Origin: Haloarcula limicola
GTDB taxonomy: Archaea > Halobacteriota > Halobacteria > Halobacteriales > Haloarculaceae
Assembly: GCF_010119205.1 (NCBI RefSeq)
Contig: NZ_WRXM01000002.1
Coordinates: 22,982-54,981 of the forward strand
Reading direction: 5' to 3'
DNA: 32,000 nucleotides
Shown here: positions 2,315 through 32,000 of the stretch, piece after piece
How positions within the stretch are numbered: position 1 is the stretch's first letter
How the letters are laid out: every line of letters begins with the position of its first letter
Translations under genes and position numbers: made by a program
Notes under the pieces: model-generated
The model's input: the letters and a program-made list of their open reading frames with translations, nothing else
Database searches by the model: none
Told to the model about the DNA's origin: nothing

Positions 2315-5300
2315 CTACCGGTCGTCGTAGTCTCGTGCGTCGCAGTCCCAGCGGAAATCGCACTCGTCGCACGTTGCCTTGTCGGGGAGGTCGTCTTCGT
2401 CCCAGTCGTCCAGGTCGTCCCAGTCGTTGTGTTCGCGGACGTGCTCGAGTTCGGTTACCGTGTTCTCGAACCGGGACATCGCCGCTCGGATCTCACTCTC
2501 GGTGAAGTCTAATTCGAGTCGGGTGGCTTCCGGATCTTCCTCGCCGAGGAAGTACAGCACTGCACTGTCTGGGTACTCGTCTTCCTTCTCGGCGTAGAGC
2601 CCTGCGTAGACGAGCAGTTGTTCGCGGTAGTCCTGGAGGTACCCCCCTCCAGAATTCGGTCGCTGGCTCGCCTTGTAGTCGCAGAGCTTCGTGTGGCCTG
2701 CTTCGTCTGCGATCACGTCGGCGACTCCGGTGAGGATGAAGCTGCCAGCGTTACGCCGGAGTTTGCACTCGGTGTTGATGACCTGGGGGTACAGGTCCGG
2801 TCCGATTTGGGCGTTGAACCGCTTGACGTGTTGGAACACAGCGTTGACCGCGTCCTGCCCCATCGGCATGATCCGCTGGTCCCGGAGCGACTCTACGACA
2901 CTATCGAACTCGTCACGCAGTTTGCCCTCGTCGGGGGTTGTACCTTCGGCTACGCCGTCAACATCACCGTTGTAGTAGCGGTGTGCCCAGTCAAGTGTCT
3001 GGTGGACGGCTAGCCCAGCGAACAGCTGGGTCCCGCTCCCGGCGGCGAACTCGTGCTCGGTGTGGTACCCGTACTGTCGCTTGCACCGTCGGAACGAGAG
3101 CACGTCAGCGACGATCGAGTAGGTCCGACGGGTGTCGTCGGTGGAAGGCGGGCCGACCGTAGTTCCGTCGGGGGCGAGTTCGGCTTCCTGGTCCAGCCGC
3201 TGGTCTGCGTCGAACCAGTCGACACCGACTGGACCGCTGGCGTCAGCGCCGAGCGAAGGGAGCACCGTACTCCCGTCGGCCCCCCGGAGGTAGTAGTCAG
3301 TTCCCAGAAGCACAAGGTTGTCCTCTGCGCGCGAGTGCGCGACGTAGAACTGCCGGACTTGGTCCCGCTCGGCACGTGTGGGAACGTCCGTCGGTGGGGT
3401 ACAGTCGGTGTAGTCGCTGAGCAGGTCCGCTACTCGGGGGACCACCTCTCCGTCGTCTGTAACGTCGTAGTTCTTCTCTGCGGTCCGTTCCAAGCTCGCG
3501 AGGAAGACCACCGGAAACTCTAGGCCCTTGGCTTGATGGACCGTCATCACCTGGACGTGCCCGCTCGGGAAGGTGTCGTACTGGTCCTCCGGGTCGTCGA
3601 GACCTTTGCTCTGGAGGTACTGACCGAACGTCCAGTAGAAGTCGCTCAGAAACCGCACCGAGACGGTGTCGTACTCGTCGTGAGATGTGCGGGTGAGCTT
3701 TCGGTTCTCGGTCACGCCCTCCGCGATGCCCTCGAATGCCTCGAGAAGCTGGCTGAGCTTCCCCAGCCGCTTGGCGCGGTTGACGTGGCCGTCGTCTTTC
3801 GTCCACGTCGAGAACGGCTCGAAGGACCTGATCCGGTTGTAGAGGTCGACGGCGGAGACGTCGGCTACGCTGCCAGAGGGAGCACTTCGAATCCGGGCGG
3901 CTGTGACTTCGAGGTAGTTCGCGAGGTCCTTCGCGTCGTGTCGTTCAATCACGTCGTCCAGAGTGGTGAGCCACTCTTGGAAGTCATCCCCGAGCCCACC
4001 GTAGGGAAGCACGTTGTCTTCCGCCCACTGAAGGTCCGGGTCGAAACACACTGCTAGCGCTGCTAACATCGCCTGAACCTCCTCGTGCTGGACGAATCCC
4101 TTGTTCCGCGGGTTGTGTACCGGGATGTCGCGCGCCTCCAATGCGTTGACGCACTCCCCGACGAACGTCGTGTTGTCCCACTGCGGCCAGTATTCACGAG
4201 TACTGTGGGCTAGCAGTGCCACCTGGTTGAGGTCCTGCACGTAGCCTTCAGCGTGAAGTCGTTGGACTTGGTCAGCGAAGGCTGCCGCGGCCTGCGCTTT
4301 GTTGTCCTCCTTCAGGAGGTGGACGCTTGGGTGGTCGACGGCGTCACGTGCCGCGTTTAGTGGCTCCTTGCCCGGTGCACGGGCCCCAGTGACCTGCATC
4401 GTCGGGTAATAGCCGATGTGGCGGTTGACCCACTCGACGATCTCCGGACGGGAACGGTAGTTCCAGCGCAGTTGTTGCGTCTCGATTTCGTCTTGGTCGA
4501 TACCAAGGTAATCGGACAGACGTTCGGGAAACTCAATCAGACAGTCGACGGTCCCACCGCGGAACCGGTAGAGCGCCTGGTCGTCGTCCCCTACCACTAC
4601 TAACGTCGGGACCTGGTCCGGCATCAGCTCGGCGAGTCGGAAGTAGATCGCCTGCTGGAGGGGGTTCACGTCTTGGTACTCGTCAACAGCGATCCGCTGC
4701 AACGGTGGCTCCTCGCGTTCTGAGTCCCCTTGTGCGAACCGCTGGCCAGCCTCTGTGTCGAGAAACGCCAGGAACCGCTCCTGAAGTCGCGCGAAGTCAC
4801 ACCGCGACTCGTCCCGCAGTGTTGCTAGGTAGTCCCGGTACCCCTCGGCTAGCCGCCTGTACTCGAGTCGGTCGGACTCGGCGAGTGCTTCGACGTCGAC
4901 TCGCAGTTGCGAAAGTCGGTTGAACAACCGTTTCGCGGTGGTGGCCGCAGCCCCCTTCGAGCAGGTGCCGTCGTCGTTCATCCGGGGAACGACGTCTCGG
5001 AACGTGGCGACGTCACCGTCGGCGAGCACGTCGACGTACTCGCTGTGGCGGGCGATGAACATCTCCTGGGCGTCCTCGTCCAAGAGGTCGACGTTGCGGT
5101 AGTCGTCGAACCGGTAGTCGCGCATGATCTCGCCCCAAAGCTGGTGGCCAGTGCCCACGTGTAACTCGTCGACGGAGAACACGTCGTCGTAGCCGAGGGC
5201 GGCGAGATCGCGTTCCAGACGCTGCTCGAGGTTCTCGGCGGCCTTCTCAGTGAAGGTGGTGAGGATGATCCCACCGGGCGGGATGCCGTCCACTAGCAAC

Positions 5301-5545
5301 CACTTCAGGACCGTCACCTCGGTCACGGTACTCTTACCTGCGCCCGGTCCTGCCGTCAGGTGCAGTGGCCCTGTTTCGTGCCGGATGGCGGTTTCTTGGT
5401 CGTCGTCGAACGACCAGTTTGGGTCGTCGTTCTGGACCTGTCGCACCGCCCGCATGACCTCAAGGAACTCGTCGAGTTCGAGGTCATCCGGCGACGTTTC
5501 GGGTCCAGGTGTCGGGTGTTCGTCTGTCACGGTTGTGTGCCCCAA
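2315..5545 (-). CDS. UvrD/Rep/AddA-type SF1 helicase fused to a C-terminal RecB/Cas4-like PD-(D/E)xK nuclease with a 4-Cys cluster (1076 aa)
   Basis: All SF1A motifs are visible: AGPGAGKST (I), TFTEKAA (Ia), VDEYQDVNPLQ (II), VVGDDDQALYRFRGG (III), NYRSRPEIV (IV), TVHQAKGLEFPVVFL (V), YVAHSRAEDNLVLL (VI). The C-terminus carries FRRCKRQY, GVADVI, LCDYK, QLLVYAGLY and CDECDFRWDC (C...CxxCxxxxxC, as in AddB/Cas4 Fe-S nucleases). Confidence 0.9.
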   Translation of the reverse strand: MGHTTVTDEHPTPGPETSPDDLELDEFLEVMRAVRQVQNDDPNWSFDDDQETAIRHETGPLHLTAGPGAGKSTVTEVTVLKWLLVDGIPPGGIILTTFTEKAAENLEQRLERDLAALGYDDVFSVDELHVGTGHQLWGEIMRDYRFDDYRNVDLLDEDAQEMFIARHSEYVDVLADGDVATFRDVVPRMNDDGTCSKGAAATTAKRLFNRLSQLRVDVEALAESDRLEYRRLAEGYRDYLATLRDESRCDFARLQERFLAFLDTEAGQRFAQGDSEREEPPLQRIAVDEYQDVNPLQQAIYFRLAELMPDQVPTLVVVGDDDQALYRFRGGTVDCLIEFPERLSDYLGIDQDEIETQQLRWNYRSRPEIVEWVNRHIGYYPTMQVTGARAPGKEPLNAARDAVDHPSVHLLKEDNKAQAAAAFADQVQRLHAEGYVQDLNQVALLAHSTREYWPQWDNTTFVGECVNALEARDIPVHNPRNKGFVQHEEVQAMLAALAVCFDPDLQWAEDNVLPYGGLGDDFQEWLTTLDDVIERHDAKDLANYLEVTAARIRSAPSGSVADVSAVDLYNRIRSFEPFSTWTKDDGHVNRAKRLGKLSQLLEAFEGIAEGVTENRKLTRTSHDEYDTVSVRFLSDFYWTFGQYLQSKGLDDPEDQYDTFPSGHVQVMTVHQAKGLEFPVVFLASLERTAEKNYDVTDDGEVVPRVADLLSDYTDCTPPTDVPTRAERDQVRQFYVAHSRAEDNLVLLGTDYYLRGADGSTVLPSLGADASGPVGVDWFDADQRLDQEAELAPDGTTVGPPSTDDTRRTYSIVADVLSFRRCKRQYGYHTEHEFAAGSGTQLFAGLAVHQTLDWAHRYYNGDVDGVAEGTTPDEGKLRDEFDSVVESLRDQRIMPMGQDAVNAVFQHVKRFNAQIGPDLYPQVINTECKLRRNAGSFILTGVADVIADEAGHTKLCDYKASQRPNSGGGYLQDYREQLLVYAGLYAEKEDEYPDSAVLYFLGEEDPEATRLELDFTESEIRAAMSRFENTVTELEHVREHNDWDDLDDWDEDDLPDKATCDECDFRWDCDARDYDDR

Positions 5546-5623
5546 AAGGGCGATGCCCGCCGCCCGAGTCGAACGGGACGTGCTCCGAACGGGCCGAAGT
5601 TGTCGCTCAGTGATGTGAATTTG

Positions 5624-5641
5624 CCGCCGCTACAGCGGCGG
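5624..5641 (-). terminator. GC-rich hairpin spanning the stop codon of the 126-aa gene
   Basis: CCGCCGCT-AC-AGCGGCGG forms 6-8 bp of perfect complementarity. It sits between the 126-aa gene and the helicase gene. No strong T-run follows, so a terminator function is uncertain. Confidence 0.2.
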
Positions 5642-6010
5642 ATCAATGAGCATCCAGTCGTTGGCCTTGCACTCCGTACAGGTCGCTGTCCCGTCCGCGC
5701 CGGGTTCCTTCATGCCGCACTTTCGACACTCAAGTGTCGGCGATGCGTCGGTGAACAGAACAGTTTCTCCGCGTGCGTACACGACCGTCGCGACGTGCGA
5801 GTGCTGGCGGAGGAGAACGAGCGGGATGCCGGATTCCTGCGTTAGGCGAGCCTCCGTGTAGTTCTTGCCCTCGATTTCCACGCGGAGGCCGGTAGCGAAC
5901 CGGTAGGAGAGGTCAGCAGCCGTGACCATCGGAGAATCCGACCGCTGGATGTAGCGCTGGAGGGCGTGGGACGAGACCTCCGGCGTTGAGCCGCTGGTGT
6001 TGATGCTCAT
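5630..6010 (-). CDS. Small protein (126 aa): DUF4258-like N-terminal region plus C-terminal zinc ribbon
   Basis: SSHALQRYIQR ... IPLVLLRQHSHVATVVYA resembles the H-A-x-x-R-x-x-x-R pattern of DUF4258-type small toxin-like domains (weak). The C-terminus has CRKC...CTEC, i.e. two CxxC pairs. It lies directly upstream of the helicase-nuclease on the same strand. Confidence 0.55.
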   Translation of the reverse strand: MSINTSGSTPEVSSHALQRYIQRSDSPMVTAADLSYRFATGLRVEIEGKNYTEARLTQESGIPLVLLRQHSHVATVVYARGETVLFTDASPTLECRKCGMKEPGADGTATCTECKANDWMLIDPPL

Positions 6011-14844: not shown

Positions 14845-17064
14845 TTAGTAGTCGGTCAGTCCGGATTGCATGAGATGCTGTGGGAGGAATTCGTCTTCGT
14901 ACCCGAGGCGTTCGAGAACGCCGTCTCGAATGCTTGCGGGGTTGGTGTGTTCATGTACCGTGCAGTTGACGTCCTCAAGCCGACTGCGAGTTGCTTCGTC
15001 CAGCTCTAAGTGCCGAGCGTCGACGAAAATATCCTGATACCGCTCACCTTCGGTGACAAGGACGTCGGCTAGGCCGTTGGAGTCGAACGATGCTGTCTCT
15101 GGACGGTTAGCCCACCACTCGTGCAATCCGGTTGCCGACACAGCCCCGATTTCGGCGACAGGGAGGTCGTGAACACTACCCCAGAACGTCGGTCGATCGT
15201 TACGGAGATATCTCTCCATAGTTCCCTGTCCCATCACAGACGCAGATGGACGCGTCACGACGAGAATTTTCGGGAGATCACCCTCGAATTGGTCATAGAA
15301 TCGCCGAGTATTGTGGAATCCACGGCGCCGATTACGGTTATTCCCTCGAAAGATTGCGACTTCGATTCCGTTCCGTGTACAGATTGGACAGTCACACCGT
15401 TTCCAAGGCTTGGCGTTGAGAAGGTCACGGTAATCGTCCAGAAGGTTTGCATCGCTGATCGGGTCCCAGGTCGCGTACGCCTCGACGAGGGGCCACAACG
15501 CGTTGATAGTGCCTGGCGTCTCTGACTCTCGTTCCACAACGACATCGAGCAACGTTGGTGTCCAATCGGTGAATACTTTCTCTGCAACTGCAACCAGGTC
15601 ATCGTACTCGGTGAACGGGATCGGGTTCTCGGGATCATCGTCACGGAGAAGTTTGATCAACTTCGAACTCAGCGGGTCACCGAAACTCGCCCGGAACGCA
15701 CGCCCGTGGTCGTAGCCCGAACGGAATGCCTCTTCAGTTTCTTTGATGTACGCCACGTCATACCGCTCGTCGTGCCGGTGCTCGAGAAGGTACTCCGTGA
15801 TCTCACTGAGAGCTTGTGTCGCTCGGTTGTGCCATGTCTGAAGTGCATCTGCAATCGGCTCGTTATTGTCGAACGCCCGGAGGGCATACAACATCTCCTG
15901 CCCTCGAAGAGCCTTCTCGATACTCGTTTGGAGGTCGTCTCGATAGCTCGGGTACCGGACGCGAATCGCGTCATAGCGCTCGTCGCTGTCGAGATGGTAA
16001 TTCTGTCCCCCTGTCCACGCTGCACGGAGCATGCTTGCGCTGTCGAAACTCGTCATACCACTACGACCGATGGTCTCGAAAGCACCGCTCTTGGCGAATC
16101 CAAAGACGTGGGTGTCGATGCGAGTCTCGTGCGTTCGTTCGAAGCTCTTGATTTCGTTCCCAACGGCACTCACGATATCTTTGACTGCACTCTCCGGACT
16201 TCCAGCGACACCACCGATACCAAGATACTGATACCCAAGATCGAGAACTTCCTTGGTCGCGTTTACGTACGATTCACAGTCCCAACCCTGCACAGCGGAC
16301 ATCAGTCGGAACGAGTAATCCCCTTCCTCGTACCGTTTGCGCATATCGCGAGCATTGCGGAGCGTGAGATCGTACCGATACTGCATATCGTCGGCCCGAT
16401 AGACTGCCCGAGGGTCGCTACGGAGATGTGCAATGATCTCCTCGACATCCCCCTCGAAATCAGTTCGTGTGAATGGCTCGATAGTCGAGACGTGATATAT
16501 GGAGGGTTCTTCTTCCGCGACATACGAAGGCCATCTGCGGCTAGAACTGCCATCGCCGTTGGGCCACGTATCGATCATGACGTCGAGTTCCTCGGTCACC
16601 TCCTCGGGGATGTCACCTTTGCTAAAGTCCCCGCTGAAAGCACGCTCATTGAGATAGAGGCGAGCAGTATGGCCCGCCCCAAGGACGAGGTGGTCAATCG
16701 TCACACCTGTAGTCACGCCGAGCTGCTCGTAGAACTCAAGCATCTCGCCGTTGTCGTACGGTGGGAAGGGGAGAGATTTGTAGCCCCACGCACCACAATC
16801 GCTGATCGTCGGGAGCCATCTAGGCAGGTCCAGTTTGGATGCGTCGTAAATTCCGTTCTCGGTCAATCGCTGTGCCTTAGTCGAACTCTCCTCTGCCTGT
16901 TCTCTCGAGATGAGGACGCCGTCGATCGGAGTGTTCTTCCTGTCGAATAAGTCCCAAATATACGCTAGATCACGCTCATCGGTCCCGAGCGTCGAGTGTT
17001 CGTCGTGGAGAAAATCGTAGTTCGCGTCAACCCGATCATCCCACTCGGGAACGTAGAACCGCAC
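14845..17064 (-). CDS. Large TGT-superfamily protein (DpdA-like core with insertions and ~150-aa C-terminal extension), 739 aa
   Basis: GTG start. The N-terminus is MRFYVPEWDDRVDANYDFLHDE. TGT-like landmarks are ISDCGAWGY (equivalent of DSGGF), SAVQGW, YLGIGGVAGSP, TSFDSASMLRAAWTG and the Zn site CDCPIC...FHN. About 190 residues are inserted between the FDSAS motif and the Zn site, and there is an unrecognised tail after it. Confidence 0.85.
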   Translation of the reverse strand: MRFYVPEWDDRVDANYDFLHDEHSTLGTDERDLAYIWDLFDRKNTPIDGVLISREQAEESSTKAQRLTENGIYDASKLDLPRWLPTISDCGAWGYKSLPFPPYDNGEMLEFYEQLGVTTGVTIDHLVLGAGHTARLYLNERAFSGDFSKGDIPEEVTEELDVMIDTWPNGDGSSSRRWPSYVAEEEPSIYHVSTIEPFTRTDFEGDVEEIIAHLRSDPRAVYRADDMQYRYDLTLRNARDMRKRYEEGDYSFRLMSAVQGWDCESYVNATKEVLDLGYQYLGIGGVAGSPESAVKDIVSAVGNEIKSFERTHETRIDTHVFGFAKSGAFETIGRSGMTSFDSASMLRAAWTGGQNYHLDSDERYDAIRVRYPSYRDDLQTSIEKALRGQEMLYALRAFDNNEPIADALQTWHNRATQALSEITEYLLEHRHDERYDVAYIKETEEAFRSGYDHGRAFRASFGDPLSSKLIKLLRDDDPENPIPFTEYDDLVAVAEKVFTDWTPTLLDVVVERESETPGTINALWPLVEAYATWDPISDANLLDDYRDLLNAKPWKRCDCPICTRNGIEVAIFRGNNRNRRRGFHNTRRFYDQFEGDLPKILVVTRPSASVMGQGTMERYLRNDRPTFWGSVHDLPVAEIGAVSATGLHEWWANRPETASFDSNGLADVLVTEGERYQDIFVDARHLELDEATRSRLEDVNCTVHEHTNPASIRDGVLERLGYEDEFLPQHLMQSGLTDY

Positions 17065-17229: not shown

Positions 17230-17520
17230 CTAATTAGTGGAACCTGCGTGCTTGATTTTGCCGTTTCTGGTGAAGATGATTACTACACCTAGTCTAGCAC
17301 TGAGGACGCCGACTGGCCGGTAGAGGATGTTTCGCGGGTCGAAAACGTAGATGAAGCCCGTGTGATCCTCTATCCAGATGCCAAGACCTTCATCTGTGAA
17401 ATATCCGCGGATGGGGAGGAACACAATCAGGGTCCAGTTCGTTGCTACTGTGAGTGAGAGGAAGTCTATAGGTGGTCCATCTTCACTGAGTACCGTATGT
17501 TTATATGCTATCTGAACCAT
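17230..17520 (-). CDS. Hypothetical protein (96 aa), uncertain
   Basis: ATG-initiated ORF on the same strand as, and upstream of, the 739-aa gene. It has one hydrophobic stretch (WTLIVFLPI) and no recognisable motif. Its start is only 8 bp from the divergent queD start, which is awkward for promoters. Confidence 0.3.
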   Translation of the reverse strand: MVQIAYKHTVLSEDGPPIDFLSLTVATNWTLIVFLPIRGYFTDEGLGIWIEDHTGFIYVFDPRNILYRPVGVLSARLGVVIIFTRNGKIKHAGSTN

Positions 17521-17528
17521 CGGTGAGT

Positions 17529-18003
17529 ATGCCCGAGATAGCTTCAGGAGAATACTCCAGTAATATCTCCCTTGACGAGGCGGGCGAGCGGACCCTCCAC
17601 GTCGGTCGTGAGTGTCCTAACCGAATCAGTTCGGGGCACCGCATCCGCTACCATGACGGGAAGTGCTCCCGCCCACACGGGCACAATTACGAAATTTCAG
17701 TGACGGTCACCGGCGAAATCAGCGAGGAGGGGTGGATCGTCGACAAGGGCGACGTTACGGCCATCATCAGCGAGTGGGACCACCGTTTTTTACTCGGAAA
17801 AAGGTGACCTGCTCATTGAGGCATTTGAACGGTCGGGAGATGGTGACGCTGTTGTGGTCCTCAATCAGCCACCAACAGCAGAGGTGATGGCTGCGGTCCT
17901 CGAGCAACGTATGATAGAGGCGTTCCCCGAGAACGTCTCTGAGGTCTCTGTGGAAGTAGCCGAGACAAGAAGCGGGAACTCGGAGCCAACCGTTAATACG
18001 TAG
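17529..18003 (+). pseudogene. queD: queD (6-carboxy-5,6,7,8-tetrahydropterin synthase) interrupted by a +1 frameshift in an A5 run at 17798-17802
   Basis: Frame 0 reads ...ISSGHRIRYHDGKCSRPHGHNYEISVTVTGEISEEGWIVDKGDVTAIISEWDHRFLLGKR*, giving the QueD motifs C-x3-HGH-x-Y and DH-x-x-L. The +1 frame from 17803 continues GDLLIEAFERSGDGDAVVVLNQPPTAEVMAAVLEQRM...VSVEVAETRSGN...*, giving the QueD C-terminal PTxE and ET motifs, and stops at 18001-18003. Deleting one A restores a single ORF. An ATG at 17505 is an alternative start. Confidence 0.75.
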
Positions 18004-23504: not shown

Positions 23505-24749
23505 TCAGGGCCGGTACTTCTTTTCTGCTTCTTTTATGTCCTCCTTCCTGAAGCGCAAGTATTCGCGGGTCTGAGTGATATCCGAATGTCCTAATAAATC
23601 CGACAAGAAAACAATCGGCATACCATTCCGAACGCGATGCACAGCAAACGAGTGCCGGAACGCATGCGCAGTGACGGTATTGCGTGTCGTACCCGCTGCA
23701 TTCGGCCCCTTATCCACTTTCGCTTGGATACCCGCTTCCTCAGCGTAGTCATGAATAATCTCTGTCGGGCGATTCGGATGCAGATCTTCGCTTGATTCAC
23801 CAAGAATCAAATAGTCGGACTCATTCGCACGCAAATACCCATTCCTCGTGCCTCCTTCCAACCACTTCTTCAGCGTTCGCTCCACCGACGGTGGATAGTA
23901 CACCATTCGATCTTCGTAACCATCCTGCTTGGCCGTCTCAATCTTAATCGACCGATCCTTCCCACCCCCGCCGTTGTCGTCATCCCCATTAAAGTCGGTA
24001 ATATCACTCACTCGAATGTTCACCAGCTCTTGTGCCCTAACACCGCAATTCCACAAGATTTGAACGATGAGCAAATCACGAGTATCATCGATCACATCCA
24101 GCAATTTCTCGTAATCCTCGATCTCAATATACCGAATCTCCTTGTACGTTTCCGATCGCGATACCCCCATATCGAATTCATCCCGCTGCACCGGATTCTC
24201 GTCAACAACACCCTTCTTCACCAGATATCCAAACAACGCAGAGAGATCATACACTCGGTTCTGGACCGACCCCTCTGAATACCCATGCAGTAGTTGATGA
24301 TCGACAAAATCCTCAACTGCAATCATCGTCGGTTCGAGAAAGTCTACGTTCTGCACGAGACTGTACACCATGTAGTGTCGATACGCGCTTTGCCGGTTCT
24401 GGAGTGTCTGCTTCGAGAAGTGCGCCTTCACCCGTAAGTCGAGATAGTTCTGCACCGGATCGGGGAAATCGAAATCAACCTCATTGAACTCTTCCCGCTC
24501 TTCCTTAGTCGGATTAGTAGATTCGAACCGTTCAAGTCGCTGCTCTAAGTGATTCCGGATGGGTGTCGGGAGCGTGATGTACTCCTTGAGCTCGTCCAGA
24601 TCTCGTACTCGTTTCGCGCGAGCACCGAGTATGGTGTACGGGCCGCGAGGATCGTCGTCTGAGACGGGAGGTTCGTCCGGTTTTTTAGCGGTCTTAGGCA
24701 CTGTCCTCACCCGATGAATCGTTGGATCGGTCGAACTTCTCCAACTCAC
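23505..24749 (-). CDS. Tyrosine recombinase / phage-type integrase (XerC/D-like), up to 414 aa
   Basis: C-terminal catalytic signature: GVRAQEL (Arg), AHAFRHSFAVH (HxxR) and LLGHSDITQTREYL (His...Tyr). An N-terminal SAM-like core-binding region is present. The start is uncertain: the GTG at 24749 overlaps the upstream gene by 56 nt, and GTGs at ~24710 and 24701 are alternatives. Confidence 0.9.
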   Translation of the reverse strand: MSWRSSTDPTIHRVRTVPKTAKKPDEPPVSDDDPRGPYTILGARAKRVRDLDELKEYITLPTPIRNHLEQRLERFESTNPTKEEREEFNEVDFDFPDPVQNYLDLRVKAHFSKQTLQNRQSAYRHYMVYSLVQNVDFLEPTMIAVEDFVDHQLLHGYSEGSVQNRVYDLSALFGYLVKKGVVDENPVQRDEFDMGVSRSETYKEIRYIEIEDYEKLLDVIDDTRDLLIVQILWNCGVRAQELVNIRVSDITDFNGDDDNGGGGKDRSIKIETAKQDGYEDRMVYYPPSVERTLKKWLEGGTRNGYLRANESDYLILGESSEDLHPNRPTEIIHDYAEEAGIQAKVDKGPNAAGTTRNTVTAHAFRHSFAVHRVRNGMPIVFLSDLLGHSDITQTREYLRFRKEDIKEAEKKYRP

Positions 24750-25071
24750 CCTCGATCAGTTCACGGTGGAACCCGACTACCTCGTCAACGGTCTCCTCGT
24801 CGAGCTGCTGGTTTTCCAGCGTGTCGAGCGCTTCGTTCGCCATCGCCATCTTCGCTTGTAGACTACTGAATTCGTCGAGAATGTCGTAGAGCATACTCTC
24901 GACCTCGTCCGGAACACCACTTTGTCCTTTGTCGCGTGATATTTGCTCGGAAACAGACTTCCGCACGAGATCTGAGACGTTCTTGTATTTACGCCCCGCT
25001 TCCTCATGTTCGATGAAGTTCTCCCAGTCGGTTTTTTGCCCGTCGTCAACGTGGATATGCATACGAGCCAT
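24694..25071 (-). CDS. Small acidic protein (125 aa), possible RHH-type regulator/excisionase partner of the integrase
   Basis: ATG at 25071 (MARMHIHVDDGQKTDWENFIE...). The N-terminus has a beta-strand-then-helix pattern like CopG/RHH proteins (weak), followed by a coiled-coil-like middle. The track's 254-aa version extends antisense into rfcL and is rejected. Confidence 0.6.
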   Translation of the reverse strand: MARMHIHVDDGQKTDWENFIEHEEAGRKYKNVSDLVRKSVSEQISRDKGQSGVPDEVESMLYDILDEFSSLQAKMAMANEALDTLENQQLDEETVDEVVGFHRELIEGELEKFDRSNDSSGEDSA

Positions 25072-25128
25072 GCAACGGAAATACCGTGAAGCCGTAATCA
25101 ATCTTGTGTATAGGGGGCACACGATCTG

Positions 25129-26643
25129 ATGGACTGGACGGAGAAGTACCGCCCGAGTACGCTCTCGGAGGTACGGGGAAACAACAAGGCCCGCGACGCC
25201 CTGAAGGAGTGGGCCGACACCTGGGAGAGCCACCGCGAGGCGATCATCCTCCACGGGACGCCCGGGGTGGGCAAGACCTCCGCCGCGCACGCGCTGGCGA
25301 ACGACATGGGCTGGCCGACCATCGAACTCAACGCCAGCGACTCCCGGACGAAGGACGTCATCGACCGGGTGGCCGGCGAAGCCGCCAAGTCCGGCACGCT
25401 GACCGCCGGGGGGCAGGGGCGTCGCCTCGTCATCATGGACGAAGCGGACAACATCCACGGTAACGCCGACCGCGGGGGCGCACGCGCCGTCTCCTCGCTC
25501 GTGAAGGAGGCCGGCCAGCCGATGATCCTCATCGCCAACGAGTTCTACGAGATGTCGAACTCGCTTCGCAACAACTGTCAGGACGTCGAGTTCTCGGCGG
25601 TGCAGAAGCGCTCGATCGTCCCCGTCCTGCGAGACATCTGTCGGAAAGAGGGCGTCGAGTATACCGACGCCGTTATCGAGGACATCGCCGAGCAGAACAG
25701 CGGCGACCTGCGGGGAGCCATCAAGGACCTGCAGGCCACCGCCGAGGGCCGCGACCGTATCGAGGCCGACGACTACGTCTCCGGCGAGCGTGACACCTCG
25801 GAGGGCATCTTCGAGTACCTCGACGTCGTGCTCAAGGAAGGCTCAGCCGAGGAGGCGCTGAAGGCCAGTTACGACGTCGACGAGACGCCGGACGACCTCA
25901 TCAACTGGATCGAGGACAACATGCCCAAGGACTACGAGGGCGCGGAACTCGCGCGGGCTTACGGCTTCCTCTCGAACGCCGATAAGTGGCTGGGCCGCGT
26001 ACGGGCGACGCAGAACTACTCGTTCTGGCGGTACGCCGGGGACAACATGACCGCCGGCGTCGCCGCCGCCCGTGACGGCAAGAAGGGCGGCTGGACCCGC
26101 TACGGGCCGCCGAGCTACTGGTCGAAACTCGGCCGCTCGAAGGGGGCGCGCAAGACGCGGGACCACATCGCCCAGCAGATCGCCGTCATCGACGGCGTCT
26201 CCATGCGGACCGCTCGTCGGGAGATCATGCCGTTCCTCGCGACGATGACCCACCACTGCACGAACCGCGACCTGACGGTGGCGATGGCCGCCACCTACGA
26301 GCTGGAGGCCGAGCACGTCTCCTTCGTCACCGGGTCGGGCGAGGACACGAACAAGGTCCAGTCCATCGTCGAGGACGCCGAACGCCGCCGCGAGGAGGCC
26401 GCCGTGGAACACTCCGGCGGCGCGTTCGAGGGGGCGACCGTGGACGGCGGCGCAGACGTCGGCGGCGATGGCAGCGAGACGACCGACACCGCCGACGAGA
26501 GTGGATCGGAGGGGGGCGACGGGCAGTCGACGCTCGGCGACGAGACGACGGCAGCCGACGCGACGGCGGACGCGGTGGAGTCGTCCGACGGCGAGGCGGC
26601 CGAGGACGACGACCAGCAGTCCGGCCTCTCCGATTTCATGTAG
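25129..26643 (+). CDS. rfcL: Replication factor C large subunit (504 aa)
   Basis: MDWTEKYRPSTLSEVRGN is the RFC box II-like N-terminus. HGTPGVGKTS is Walker A and LVIMDEADNI is Walker B. An acidic C-terminal tail ends in QQSGLSDFM, a PIP-box-like QxxLxxF motif. Confidence 0.92.
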   Translation: MDWTEKYRPSTLSEVRGNNKARDALKEWADTWESHREAIILHGTPGVGKTSAAHALANDMGWPTIELNASDSRTKDVIDRVAGEAAKSGTLTAGGQGRRLVIMDEADNIHGNADRGGARAVSSLVKEAGQPMILIANEFYEMSNSLRNNCQDVEFSAVQKRSIVPVLRDICRKEGVEYTDAVIEDIAEQNSGDLRGAIKDLQATAEGRDRIEADDYVSGERDTSEGIFEYLDVVLKEGSAEEALKASYDVDETPDDLINWIEDNMPKDYEGAELARAYGFLSNADKWLGRVRATQNYSFWRYAGDNMTAGVAAARDGKKGGWTRYGPPSYWSKLGRSKGARKTRDHIAQQIAVIDGVSMRTARREIMPFLATMTHHCTNRDLTVAMAATYELEAEHVSFVTGSGEDTNKVQSIVEDAERRREEAAVEHSGGAFEGATVDGGADVGGDGSETTDTADESGSEGGDGQSTLGDETTAADATADAVESSDGEAAEDDDQQSGLSDFM

Positions 26644-26666
26644 GCCGGACGAGTCGAGCGCGCTCT

Positions 26667-27650
26667 TCAGGCCTGACGCTTCCCGCCCAGTCCGGGAATC
26701 GACGTCCGCTCCTCGACGACGTTCATCAGGAGCGACGCCGAGACGACCAGCGCGAGGTAGAAGAGCGCGGCGAGGACGAACAGTTCCGTGTAGCGGAACG
26801 TGTCGTTGGCGATGGACTCGGCCTGGAAGAACAGCTCGCGGACCGTGATGAACGCGGCCAGCGAGGAGTACTTGATGAGGTAGACGAGTTCGTTCGACCA
26901 CCCGGGGATGGCGTAGCGCAGGCCCTGCGGCAGGACGACGTAGCGGATGCCGTCGACCTTCGAGAGGCCGATGGAACGGGCGGCGGTCAGCTGGCCGGCG
27001 TCGACGGATTCGAGCGCCGAGCGGATGTACTCGGCCTGGTAGGCAGCGCTGTTGAGCGTGAAGCCGATGATGGCGACCCAGACGGCGGTCCCCGGTACCA
27101 TGCCGACGCCGATGCCGGGGAGCGTGCGGATGATCTGGGTCAGCGGCAGGCCGAAGTAGAGCACGAACAGCTGTGCGAGCAGCGGCGTGCCGCGGATGAG
27201 CTCGGTGTACGAGAGCGAGAGCCACCGCAGCCCCCGGCCGCCGTAGACGCGCGCGACCGACAGCGGCACGGCCAGCACGAACCCGAAGGCGATGCCGGCG
27301 ACGGTGAGGACGATCGTGAGCCACGCGCCGCGGGCCAGCGGCGGGAGCGAGGGAATCGCCCCGGCGACGAACGAGAGGACGCCCGCGAGCGCGTCGAGCG
27401 GCGCGCCGACCACGCCCAGCGAGGCCGCGACCGCCGCGACCGACTCCGCCGCCGAGGCGAACGGCGCGACCGGAACGAACGACCGGTCGCTCGGGAACGC
27501 CAGCGAGTTCGGCAACAGGAAGTCGTTGGTCCAGCGGATCAGCAGCCAGCCCCAGAACACCGCGAGTCCGGCGAGTGCCCACGGCCGGTCGACGTCGACG
27601 TCGGCCGTCGTCCGCACCTCGTCGGCGACGGACGGTTCGCCGGTGCTCAT
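26667..27650 (-). CDS. Polar amino-acid ABC transporter permease (327 aa)
   Basis: Multiple TM segments. EAA-loop region: ESVDAGQLTAARSIGLSKVDGIRYVVLPQGLRYAIPGWSNE. There is a 4-nt start/stop overlap with the ATPase gene. Confidence 0.9.
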   Translation of the reverse strand: MSTGEPSVADEVRTTADVDVDRPWALAGLAVFWGWLLIRWTNDFLLPNSLAFPSDRSFVPVAPFASAAESVAAVAASLGVVGAPLDALAGVLSFVAGAIPSLPPLARGAWLTIVLTVAGIAFGFVLAVPLSVARVYGGRGLRWLSLSYTELIRGTPLLAQLFVLYFGLPLTQIIRTLPGIGVGMVPGTAVWVAIIGFTLNSAAYQAEYIRSALESVDAGQLTAARSIGLSKVDGIRYVVLPQGLRYAIPGWSNELVYLIKYSSLAAFITVRELFFQAESIANDTFRYTELFVLAALFYLALVVSASLLMNVVEERTSIPGLGGKRQA

Positions 27651-28390
27651 TCCGGTGCCCTCGACTGGAGACCCGCGAGGAACTCCTCGGTCCGGTCGTG
27701 TTCCGGCCGCTGGAACAGCTGCTCGGGCGGTCCCGACTCGACGACGCGCCCGTCGTCCAGGAAGTGGACGTCGTCGGCCGCCGAGCGGACGAACCCCATC
27801 TCGTGGCTGACGACGAGCATCGTCGTCCCGCGCTCGGCGAGGTCGCGCATCACCTCGACGACTTCGCCGACGAGCTCGGGGTCGAGCGCGCTGGTCGGCT
27901 CGTCGAACAGCATCAGCTTCGGCTCCATCGCCAGCGCCCGGGCGATGCCGACGCGCTGTTGCTGACCGCCGGAGAGTTCGGCGGGATAGGAGTCGGCCTG
28001 ATTCGCCAGCCCGACCTGCCGAAGGTGGTCGGCGGCCCGCTCGTTCGCCTCGTCGGCGTCCATCCCGCGGACGCGTTTCAGCCCGAGCGTGACGTTCTCC
28101 AGGGCGGTGAGATGCGCGAAGAGGTTGAAGTCCTGGAACACCATCCCGACCTCCTGTCGGAGCGCGTTGACGTCCGTGTCGGGCGCGGTGACGTGGGTCT
28201 CGTTGAGCCAGATGTCGCCGTCGTCGACCTCGGTCAGTCGGTTAATGCAGCGCAGCATCGTCGACTTCCCGCTCCCGCTCGGGCCGACGAGGACGTCCAC
28301 GTCGCCGCGGTCCATCTCGAAGCTGACGCCGTTCAGTACCTCCTCGTCGCCGTAGGACTTGTCGACGTCCTCGACTCGTAGCAGTGTCAT
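27647..28390 (-). CDS. Polar amino-acid ABC transporter ATP-binding protein (GlnQ/HisP-like, 247 aa)
   Basis: GPSGSGKST (Walker A), LSGGQQQRVGIARAL (ABC signature), LMLFDEPTSALD (Walker B) and the H-loop VVSHEMGF. Confidence 0.93.
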   Translation of the reverse strand: MTLLRVEDVDKSYGDEEVLNGVSFEMDRGDVDVLVGPSGSGKSTMLRCINRLTEVDDGDIWLNETHVTAPDTDVNALRQEVGMVFQDFNLFAHLTALENVTLGLKRVRGMDADEANERAADHLRQVGLANQADSYPAELSGGQQQRVGIARALAMEPKLMLFDEPTSALDPELVGEVVEVMRDLAERGTTMLVVSHEMGFVRSAADDVHFLDDGRVVESGPPEQLFQRPEHDRTEEFLAGLQSRAPE

Positions 28391-29061
28391 GTGTTCTCAC
28401 CCGACGGAATCGCGTAGTACTCGCTCAGCCGGTCCAGCCCGCGGTTGGTCGCGAACGTGAGCACGAAGTAGATGGCGCTGATGACCAGGAAGACCTCCAG
28501 AACCGCCGTCGAGCGCCCGCTCTGGGTGAAGAGGTCGTAGCCGCGCGTCAGCAGCTCCGCGAGGCCGATGGCGAAGGCGATGCTAGTGTCCTTCAGGACG
28601 ATGGTGAACTCGTTCTGGAACCCGGGCATGCTCCGGCGCAGGGCCTGCGGGACGACGACGTGGCGGATGCCGCCGAGCCGGCTCATCCCGATCGAGCGGG
28701 CGGCCTCCATCTGCCCGTCGTCGACGCTCTGGAGCGCGCCGCGGAAGATCTGGGACTGATAGGCCGCGCTGCGCAGCCCCAGTCCGACCGCCGCGGTGAC
28801 GAACGCCGACTTGGAGATGGAGACGACGAAGAAGAGCACGAGCATGATGACGACGATCGGCGTCCCGCGGAGGACGACGCCGGTCAGGCTCACCAACCGC
28901 TTGCCGATGCCGTCGCCGTACACCTCGATCGCGCCGGCGGGGAAGCCGACCAACAGGCCGAGCAACAGGCTGGCGATCGTCAGCCCGACCGTGACGGCCG
29001 CCCCCGAGAGCAGGTAGTCGAGGTTGTTCAGGACGAACGTCCAGTCGCCTGTCTGAAGCAT
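28387..29061 (-). CDS. Polar amino-acid ABC transporter permease (224 aa)
   Basis: EAA-loop: QSVDDGQMEAARSIGMSRLGGIRHVVVPQALRRSMPGFQNEF. About 5 TM segments. The gene overlaps the ATPase gene by 4 nt. Confidence 0.9.
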   Translation of the reverse strand: MLQTGDWTFVLNNLDYLLSGAAVTVGLTIASLLLGLLVGFPAGAIEVYGDGIGKRLVSLTGVVLRGTPIVVIMLVLFFVVSISKSAFVTAAVGLGLRSAAYQSQIFRGALQSVDDGQMEAARSIGMSRLGGIRHVVVPQALRRSMPGFQNEFTIVLKDTSIAFAIGLAELLTRGYDLFTQSGRSTAVLEVFLVISAIYFVLTFATNRGLDRLSEYYAIPSGENT

Positions 29062-29065
29062 CGCT

Positions 29066-29893
29066 CTACTCGCCGAACCACTTCTGGGTCAGTTCCTCGT
29101 ACCGCCCGCTCTCCCGGACCGCCGAGAGCCCCGAGTTGAGCGCGCTCGTCAGTTCGTCGTCGTCCGTGCGGACGCCGAAGCCGAACTTCTCGCCGGTCTC
29201 GTAGACGAACGCTATCTCGACGGGGCGGTTCTTCGCGAACGTCTCGGCGACGGGGACGTCGATGACGACGGCGTCGACGTTGCCGTTCTGGAGGTCCTGA
29301 ATCGCCAGCACGTAGTTGTCGTAGGCGTTGTACTGGTTCTGGGTGATCTCGTCGCCGACGAGTTCGTCCTGGACGACGCCCTCCCCGGTGGTGCCCTTCT
29401 GCGCGCCGATGGGGCGGTCCGCCAGGTCCGAGAGGCTCCCCGGCGAGAAGTCGCCGTCCTCGCGGACGACGATGGCCTGGTCCGAGGAGTAGTAGGGGTC
29501 CGTGAAGTCGATGGTCTCGTCGCGCTTCTCGTTGATGGTCATCCCGGCCGCGATGGCGTCGATGTTGTTGTTGGTGAGCGCCGGGATGAGCGAGTCGAAC
29601 TCGAACTCCGACCAGCCGTCGAACTGATACTCCGTCTCGGAGACGACGGCCTCGAAGAGGTCGATGTCGAAGCCGACCAGTTCGCCGCCCTCCTTCATCT
29701 CGAAGGGCGGGAACCCGGGTGCGGTACCGGCCGTGATGCTCGGTGCCTGCTCGGTGCCGGTGGACCCGCTCCCACCGCCGCCGTCGCCGCTTCCGCTACC
29801 GCCGTCACCCATGCAACCGGCGACCGAGAGCGTCACCGCCGCGCCGCCGACGGACGTGAGGTACTGCCGACGCGAGAGACTTCGATCTGACAT
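29066..29893 (-). CDS. Amino-acid ABC transporter substrate-binding lipoprotein with Tat signal (275 aa)
   Basis: The twin-arginine motif SRRQYL is followed by a hydrophobic region and the lipobox VAGC. A Gly/Ser linker follows. The type-3 SBP-like body includes GFDIDL, IAAGMTI, DFTDPYY and IGAQKGTTGE. Confidence 0.9.
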   Translation of the reverse strand: MSDRSLSRRQYLTSVGGAAVTLSVAGCMGDGGSGSGDGGGGSGSTGTEQAPSITAGTAPGFPPFEMKEGGELVGFDIDLFEAVVSETEYQFDGWSEFEFDSLIPALTNNNIDAIAAGMTINEKRDETIDFTDPYYSSDQAIVVREDGDFSPGSLSDLADRPIGAQKGTTGEGVVQDELVGDEITQNQYNAYDNYVLAIQDLQNGNVDAVVIDVPVAETFAKNRPVEIAFVYETGEKFGFGVRTDDDELTSALNSGLSAVRESGRYEELTQKWFGE

Positions 29894-29977
29894 ACCCGGT
29901 AAAACAACGTAGCTGGGGATTAGTGTTACGAACGGGTACTACGGGCGTTGTACGTTTCGGGGGCGAGCGCCGCCCGC

Positions 29978-30487
29978 TCAGTCGGAGCTCGGACTCGGGT
30001 CCGTCTCGGCGGCCGACTCGCTCGTCCGGGCGTCAGAGCGGGTCTCGGCGTCCGCCGCGGTGCCGTCGTAGGCCCACGCGGTCGCCGCGACGAGCGCCAC
30101 CAGAATCGCCAGCGCGGCGGCGTGGTGCAGCACCTGCGCGGCCGCCCCGAAGTTGACGATGGTGTTCGCCCCCAGCAGTATCTGGATCGGGAGGACGACG
30201 GTGGCGACGGCCGTCGCGTACTTGATTCGAGACGAGTAACCGCCGCGCCAGGCGGCGTACGTCGACCCGAGGATGGCGAAGCCGGTGATCATGGCGACCA
30301 GCCGGTGGAACCACTCGACGAAGCTCGCCCAGTTGGCGGGAAACAGTCCCAGCCAGCCGTCACACAGCGGCCAGCGTCCGTTGCAGGTCAGACCCGCGCC
30401 GATGGCACCGGTGTAGACGCCCAGCAGGATGAGCGCGAAGGTCAGCGCCGTCGTCACCGCGAGTAGCCGACGGAAGCGGTCGGTCAT
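29978..30487 (-). CDS. ctaA: Short (4-TM) archaeal-type heme A synthase, CtaA/COX15 family (169 aa)
   Basis: LTCNGRWPLCDG is the CxxxWPxC motif of CtaA. Four hydrophobic helices carry conserved His residues (WFHRL, VLHHAAA). Confidence 0.7.
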   Translation of the reverse strand: MTDRFRRLLAVTTALTFALILLGVYTGAIGAGLTCNGRWPLCDGWLGLFPANWASFVEWFHRLVAMITGFAILGSTYAAWRGGYSSRIKYATAVATVVLPIQILLGANTIVNFGAAAQVLHHAAALAILVALVAATAWAYDGTAADAETRSDARTSESAAETDPSPSSD

Positions 30488-30581
30488 GTTCGAGTCTTCG
30501 TGCGCTCGTACTTATCCCCTTCTTTGAGCGGTCGGCAGAGCCGGTGGTCCGATTATTAATTGTGGTATTTTGGAGCGTACG

Positions 30582-30590
30582 CTTTTTACA
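30582..30590 (+). promoter_or_regulatory. TATA-like box (ctttttaca) ~25-30 bp upstream of the transducer ATG (leaderless arrangement)
   Basis: An AT-rich element in otherwise GC-rich DNA. Its spacing to the ATG at 30615 matches the archaeal TATA-to-TSS distance, assuming a leaderless mRNA. Confidence 0.3.
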
Positions 30591-30614
30591 CTCCGTGAGA
30601 GGGTCTCGGCCATC

Positions 30615-32000
30615 ATGTTCCCCAGAGACCTGGCCTCGTTGTTCGGAGACGACGATGAATCGAACGACAGTAAACGGGTAGAGACCGACGGCGGTCAGAC
30701 GACGGCGGTTACCACAGGGGTACCGGGGGACGGCCACGATCGGAACCCGGACACCGAGGCGATCGTCGGCGATGCGTTCGACCAGTTACGGGACGAACTC
30801 GACGAGGAGACACACGAGACCATCGCGGCGGTCGAGCGCGAGCTGCGGGCCGAACTGGCGACGGCGGGTGCCGGCGATCGAGCGACCGAGGTCGCAGCAG
30901 AGACGGCTTCCGCGGCGGCGGCCGACGACCCGCCGATAGATTTCCACGACGTTCTCCATCACGTCGGCACGCCGCTGTTCATCCTCGACGCGGACGGCGA
31001 GATCGTGACGTGGAACCGCTCGCTGACCGCGCTCACCGGGGTCGGAGAGGACGACGCCAAGTCGATGGAGATGGCCAGCATGGCGTTCTATCCGGATAGC
31101 CGCCGCGGGAAGACGCTCGCCGACAAGGTGCTCGACGCGCCCGAGCGGACCCACCTCGAGTACGACGTGCCGAAAGTCGAGGACGCGGAGTTCACGCTGT
31201 ACCGGGACACGAGCGTCATGCAGGACCAGCACGGCGAGGAGCGGCACATCTCCTTCAGCGCGGCGCCGCTGTACGCCGACGGCGAGGTCGTCGCCGTCGT
31301 GGAGATGGTTCAGGACCGGACCGACGACGCCCGTCGGCACGAGGCGGTGTCCGACCTCGTCGGGGAGCTCGAAGCCACGATGACCGCGATGGGACGGGGG
31401 AACCTCGGCGCTCGCGCGTCGTTCGACGACGAGGAGGGGAGAGAGTACGTCGACGACGCGCTGTTGGACGTCGTCGACGCGCTCAACGAGATGGCCGACC
31501 AGTTCGACCGCCTGACCGGACAGGTCGACACGCAGACGGCGAACCTCGCGAGTGCCATCGACCAGACGGCGTCGGCCGCTCGAACCGTCGAGCGACAGGT
31601 CGCCGAACAGGCCGACGCGCTGGACACGGCCGCCGACAACGTGCAGAACGTCAGCGCCGGGATGCAGCAGGTCGCCGCCACGTCGAGCGAGGTCGCCAGC
31701 GCGGCGGAGCGCGCGCTCGCCGCGGCCGAGGACGGGGCCGACGCCAGCGAGGCGGTCCACGAGGTGACCGACGGTCTCACCGAGACGAGCGAGTCGCTCG
31801 TCGACAGCGTCACCGACCTCGAATCGCGGATGGACGGGGTCAGCGATGTGGCGGAGGTCATCGCCGACGTCGCGGAGCAGACGAACATGCTCGCGCTGAA
31901 CGCCAATATCGAAGCCGCCCGGGCGGGCGAGAGCGGGAGCGGGTTCGCCGTCGTCGCCGACGAGGTGAAGACGCTGGCGAACGAGACGAGCGACCACGCC
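30615..32000 (+). CDS. Soluble PAS-HAMP-MCP signalling transducer (Htr-like methyl-accepting chemotaxis protein), partial; runs off right edge
   Basis: Not in the ORF track because it has no in-window stop; 462 codons are in frame from the ATG at 30615. PAS-like: [32 protein letters not shown]-like: [12 protein letters not shown]...[12 protein letters not shown]. Highly conserved MCP hairpin: [35 protein letters not shown]. No TM segment is present. Confidence 0.88.

Follow-up and report, generated by a model that had tools for sequence, protein, structure and literature searches.

The window, by which we mean the whole stretch of 32,000 nucleotides of Haloarcula limicola DNA that was analysed, carries a gene for DpdA and, divergent from it at a spacing of 465 bp, a gene for QueD, 6-carboxy-5,6,7,8-tetrahydropterin synthase (PF01242 PTPS; TIGR03367), which is distributed over more than one reading frame. 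The window DpdA matches the NF041059 family and the PADLOC DpdA model (245 bits for the latter), and it aligns over its full length with its relatives, with no stop. The window as a whole is an island of low GC content, 56.7% against 65.9% for the contig. A step in GC content, from about 0.50–0.55 to 0.64–0.72, is found near position 25,000 (window 1–25000 compared with 25000–32000), and a gene for a tyrosine integrase (23505–24749) adjoins this step. There is no tRNA gene in the window, which excludes a tRNA inside it as the attachment site. A patch of higher GC at 3000–6000 coincides with the gene for a UvrD-type helicase of 1076 residues with a PD-(D/E)XK nuclease domain. The features that matter here are as follows.

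14845–17064, minus strand: dpdA, 739 aa, divergent from queD (NF041059, 278.4 bits, cut-off 200)
17529–17807, plus strand: 5′ part of queD in frame 0, from the ATG at 17529; PF01242 positions 7–68 of 121, 52.9 bits
17796–17797, plus strand: GG dinucleotide, likeliest site of a 1-nt insertion (residues of homologues, aligner gap, profile score)
17797–17967, plus strand: middle part of queD in the +1 frame, EKGDLL...PPTAEVM...VAET, ending at the catalytic Glu-Thr codons
17798–17802, plus strand: A5 run, apparently ancestral (within GAA-AAA codons) rather than the product of an A4-to-A5 slip
17809–17811, plus strand: CTG (Leu) in place of the invariant Pro of GDPL (Pro in 120 of the best 120 homologues)
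17962–17967, plus strand: catalytic Glu-Thr codons of queD
17969–17973, plus strand: 5-nt insertion, positioned to within a few bases; a gap in all DNA alignments (8 + 4 relatives)
17976–17996, plus strand: presumed ancestral tail, now out of frame, GAA-CTC-GGA-GCC-AAC-CGT-TAA, i.e. E-L-G-A-N-R-stop
18001–18003, plus strand: TAG ending the present +1-frame reading of queD, with the tail RSGNSEPTVNT

The split of queD in the window is real, and it amounts to a +1 shift by one extra base. Frame 0, for which an alternative ATG is found at 17505, reads ...WDHRFLLGKR and then meets a premature TGA at 17805–17807, after 92 codons; the His, Cys, HGH and WDH motifs all lie in this 5′ part. The +1 frame runs without a gap through ...EKGDLLIEAF...PPTAEVM...AET... 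to the TAG at 18001–18003. Once the two are joined, the reading matches PF01242 over positions 7–112 of 121, with 69.7–70.8 bits, thus passing the cut-off of 22.4; against the stricter TIGR03367 equivalog it obtains 72–75 bits, under the cut-off of 89.25. The entire PTPS/QueD domain is covered by the joined reading alone, in which the catalytic and zinc motifs (SGH, GKC, HGH, WDH and ET) are complete, and which is 62–80% identical to intact haloarchaeal QueD. Nowhere in the window is the domain encoded by a single uninterrupted frame, as both the TGA at 17805–17807 and a further shift around 17969–17973 stand in the way. A sequence-only reading of this DNA had described the N-terminal half in frame 0 up to the TGA, followed gaplessly by the C-terminal half in the +1 frame, and had recorded the A5 run at 17798–17802; the sequence itself and the PF01242 matches bear this description out. 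It had missed the second frame-breaking lesion, the one of 5 nt, to which we return below.

The position of the extra base was approached through comparison with homologues. The set retained comprises the best 120 of 1873 proteins with E<=1e-10, found among 5.8 billion proteins. These best 120 are about 139–161 residues long, mostly 150–154, and all of them match across the junction, the nearest intact relatives among them reaching at most 75–80% protein identity to the window queD. At the junction residue they have Glu in 118 cases and Gln in the remaining 2, Gly in none. DNA alignments were made with eight intact homologues, drawn from this genome, its genus and its order, and with four closer relatives: WDHRFL[LV]E spans the junction in 8/8 of the former, and in the 12 intact relatives together (8 + 4) the 1-nt gap falls at the G of CTC-G-GAA. 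The frame is likewise unbroken in all nine queD copies that adjoin a related dpdA in the genomes of other haloarchaea, where the junction reads CTC-GAG-AAG (L-E-K) in five, has CAG (Gln) in one, and GAA or GAG in the other three. With a family profile built from the best 120 of the 1873 homologues, removal of the G together with the 5 nt gives 267.5 bits, removal of the G only 262.1, of an A only 259.1 and of a T 256.7, so that the reading that drops G beats the one that drops A by 3.0 bits and the one that drops T by 5.4 bits. An insertion in the T6 run (17786–17791), which has this lowest profile score and would turn the conserved L-L into Y-S, was rejected. Because the homologues have Glu, and the island-linked copies CTC-GAG-AAG, the ancestral junction is to be read, over this long distance, as a probable CTC-GAA-AAA-GGT (L-E-K-G) in which the A5 run was already there, and a G at 17796/17797 is the likeliest addition. 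The sequence-only reading had put the extra base within the A run. This placement gives way, since the five A would belong to the ancestral GAA-AAA codons, and the control that it had suggested, a search for A4 in relatives, starts from a wrong premise if A5 is ancestral and the added base a G; what the relatives have at those two codons is GAG-AAG, GAA-GAA and the like.

The damage to queD does not end there. Directly 3′ of the catalytic Glu-Thr codons the 5-nt insertion shifts the frame again, and the conserved E-L tail is lost. Among the best 120 of the 1873 homologues the tail reads ET-x-E-L-C/S-A-..., with E in 117/120 and L in 120/120, and none of these 120 has the present tail of the window copy. 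The out-of-frame codons at 17976–17996 pair one by one with the E-L-C-A-G-Y-stop of relatives, and the stops coincide. Removal of both indels yields a protein of 153 residues, which is the commonest length of the family (73 of the best 120), and yields the top profile score. Unlike intact haloarchaeal queD, the window copy thus combines a 1-nt and a 5-nt insertion, both within 180 nt of one redundant gene, with a Leu for Pro and no E-L tail. More generally, its read-through deviates at 5 of the 58 columns with a conservation of 97% or more, when the best 120 homologues deviate at 0–3 (median 0), and among the 138 terminal branches of the QueD tree its own ranks 7th in length. The positions given for both indels, and the codons that we call ancestral, are read across 75–80% protein identity and are to be taken as the most probable ones.

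The context of the gene has changed as well. In 6/6 related islands for which longer flanks are available (L064–L069, from genomes G243, G001, G329, G014, G208 and G084), dpdA is divergently paired with a complete queD-queE-folE-queC set, that is, with the whole pathway from GTP to preQ0. The nearest intact relatives of the window queD lie in queD-queE-(folE)-queC operons, and a copy from a Halorubrum plasmid lies in a queD-queE-queC operon. In contrast to these haloarchaeal operons, the window queD has lost queE, folE and queC from its 3′ side: likeness to relatives stops at the queD stop, what comes next is an unrelated ORF of 196 aa, and no remnant of queE, folE or queC was found in the window. 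The broken queD is all that the window holds of a preQ0 supply of its own. The host, by contrast, is well provided. Its chromosomal queD-queE-queC genes are intact (contig C1, 1652065–1653951) and folE is found on contig C5. The same genome (G000) contains a second DpdA paralogue, outside the window (contig C4, 74470–76647), with an open frame of 743 residues and 50% identity. Because neither queD nor queC was found near this C4 paralogue, the preQ0 genes of the chromosome would have to serve both Dpd-type islands. The proposal of the sequence-only reading that the island depends on host QueD is therefore upheld, the host genes being present and the island queE, folE and queC lost.

Taken together, these observations make it very probable that the island queD is a genuine and decaying pseudogene of the ordinary kind, the last remnant of a lost operon of four precursor genes. 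A real insertion or an assembly error had been seen by the sequence-only reading as the parsimonious explanations. The former gains from the second indel and from the changes at invariant sites. The latter, according to which queD is uninterrupted in the true genome and an artefact added the base at 17796–17802, has become improbable. It is true that the break adjoins short homopolymers, T6, GG and A5, yet the site favoured by the homologues is GG and not one of the longer runs, a 5-nt insertion in non-repetitive sequence is no typical base-calling error, indel errors cannot account for the substitutions at invariant sites, and to take the 1-nt indel for an error would leave the 3′ lesion in place. 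Furthermore, both indels fall in the one gene that is expected to decay because its operon partners were deleted, in a genome of 99.98% completeness where neither the two dpdA copies nor the host que genes are damaged. The sole other record with the same sequence, GCA_019061235.1 (JAHQXF010000002.1), is 100% identical over window 4135–30225 (26 kb), both indels included, with no gene called at queD. Since it shows zero differences in 26 kb, it probably comes from the same strain and is not an independent witness, a point in favour of an artefact; to the two indels it brings slight support. Further comparisons reached more remote sequences. No public sequencing run among those searched for the locus holds it (the best share, 0.07, was in soil metagenomes), and the search of genome contigs with DpdA found no strain-level relative. 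DNA identity with the species representatives of the genus is only about 70–74%, the best match in plasmid records has 75.5%, and none came from the phage records.

A different way to save the gene would be to read through its break, and here the probabilities become much smaller still. At A-AAA-AGG-TGA, as the sequence-only reading had proposed, a Lys-tRNA could re-pair one base forward at a rare AGG and a stop, with full-length QueD made at a low level. We hold such a programmed shift to be very unlikely, and slightly less credible again the idea that it gives a trickle of near-full-length QueD by low-level +1 frameshifting in a haloarchaeon. The site has the looks of what is asked of it, a re-pairing P-site codon beside a slow codon or a stop: AAA-A permits perfect +1 re-pairing, AGG is indeed rare (3.0 per 1000 codons, 3.9% of Arg codons), as had been supposed, and a stop comes directly 3′ of it, much as in prfB (CUU-UGA-C) and Ty1 (CUU-AGG-C). 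Unlike these two, it is unconserved, costs a conserved Glu and belongs to a gene with further lesions. Indeed, no shift is present in the best 120 homologues, in the 9 island-linked copies, in the 8 relatives from genus and order or in the plasmid copies, and neither the shift site nor the split architecture is conserved, the 12 DNA-aligned relatives included. Slippage on AAA-A is disfavoured because Gly would replace the Glu (rarely Gln) found there in the best 120; the product would still be without the E-L tail, owing to the second indel, and would still have Leu for the invariant Pro, hence would not be otherwise intact. The partner genes, moreover, are deleted, and a host copy of queD exists. 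Experimental proof of frameshifting in Archaea is limited to the −1 type, for Saccharolobus fucA1, and +1 frameshifting, suggested for a haloarchaeal virus and for a methanogen Mg-chelatase, has not been demonstrated in cellular genes (PMC8211752, PMC8037382). If true, the event at queD would be the first cellular +1 recoding shown in this domain. Transcriptional slippage on A5 or T6 was set aside: the process as known needs runs of about 9 or more, these runs are too short, and the site favoured by the homologues is GG. The least probable of all these possibilities is that the two halves of queD yield two distinct polypeptides, which join to form an active T-fold enzyme. Both halves do stay open frames, yet the first +1-frame start after the junction, the GTG at 17854, would omit the conserved EKGDxL...SGDGD, no split homologue exists among the best 120 of the 1873, and the tail is frameshifted too. 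Against the pseudogene reading itself it must be said that a C-terminal tail can diverge while the function is kept.

If queD is a pseudogene, a plausible history can be proposed. In the ancestral island a complete preQ0 operon, queD-queE-folE-queC, would have stood beside dpdA in divergent orientation. Deletion of queE, folE and queC presumably had its breakpoint at or just 3′ of the queD stop, where unrelated genes now follow. Because of this deletion, and of the intact que genes of the host, queD would have been left an orphan, useless alone, redundant with the chromosomal copy and under no evident selection. It then probably gained the 1-nt insertion (G to GG at 17796–17797), which makes translation stop at 17805–17807, and the 5-nt insertion around 17969–17973, which destroys the conserved C-terminal E-L tail, while residues that are invariant elsewhere were replaced as well, for instance the Pro of GDPL by Leu. 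The order of these events, like the absence of a functional product, is what we infer from the present state of the locus. At the end of this path the island DpdA would have to draw its preQ0 from the host pathway, and presumably it uses host-made preQ0 in the way proposed for dpdA phages that have no preQ0 genes (Hutinet et al., 2019; PMC6884629). The window resembles such phages and Dpd islands in being a dpdA-bearing mobile element with no working preQ0 pathway, in a host that makes preQ0. It differs from the phages in that the dependence appears to be secondary: the queD remnant indicates that the pathway was once on the island, as it still is in relatives.

With reference to annotation, the outcome is mainly a negative one, as what looked like a recoding site belongs to a pseudogene of the ordinary kind, for which the annotation should be chosen accordingly. 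What the locus adds is that a lineage of haloarchaeal Dpd islands normally has a complete preQ0 operon, and that this island has probably lost its own. It would thus be an example of a mobile DNA-modification module that sheds redundant metabolic genes and comes to depend on the archaeosine precursor pathway of its host.

A few observations on the surroundings may be recorded here. The contig of GCA_019061235.1, of 1,379,950 bases, is joined differently from contig C2 (1,112,922 bases), and C2 and C4 add up to 1,379,542 bases, within 408 bases of it. Between dpdA and queD lies an ORF of 96 aa (17230–17520, minus strand), whose coordinates take in the alternative queD start at 17505; it is a gene in the NCBI record, and no Pfam family is recorded for it. 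The closest relative of the window DpdA (71%, in genome G089) has no queD in its upstream flank, of which 1.1 kb is available before the stretch ends. DpdA proteins of the 740–970 aa type are found in 54 of the 401 Halobacteria genomes sampled. At many related dpdA loci (L034–L038, L043–L045, L048–L051 and L053) the DpdA match (query 1–728) falls within an open frame some 970 residues long. This roughly equals the window DpdA (739 aa) plus its neighbour, the DUF6884/DpdC-like gene (235 aa), so that those genomes may have a fusion of the two.
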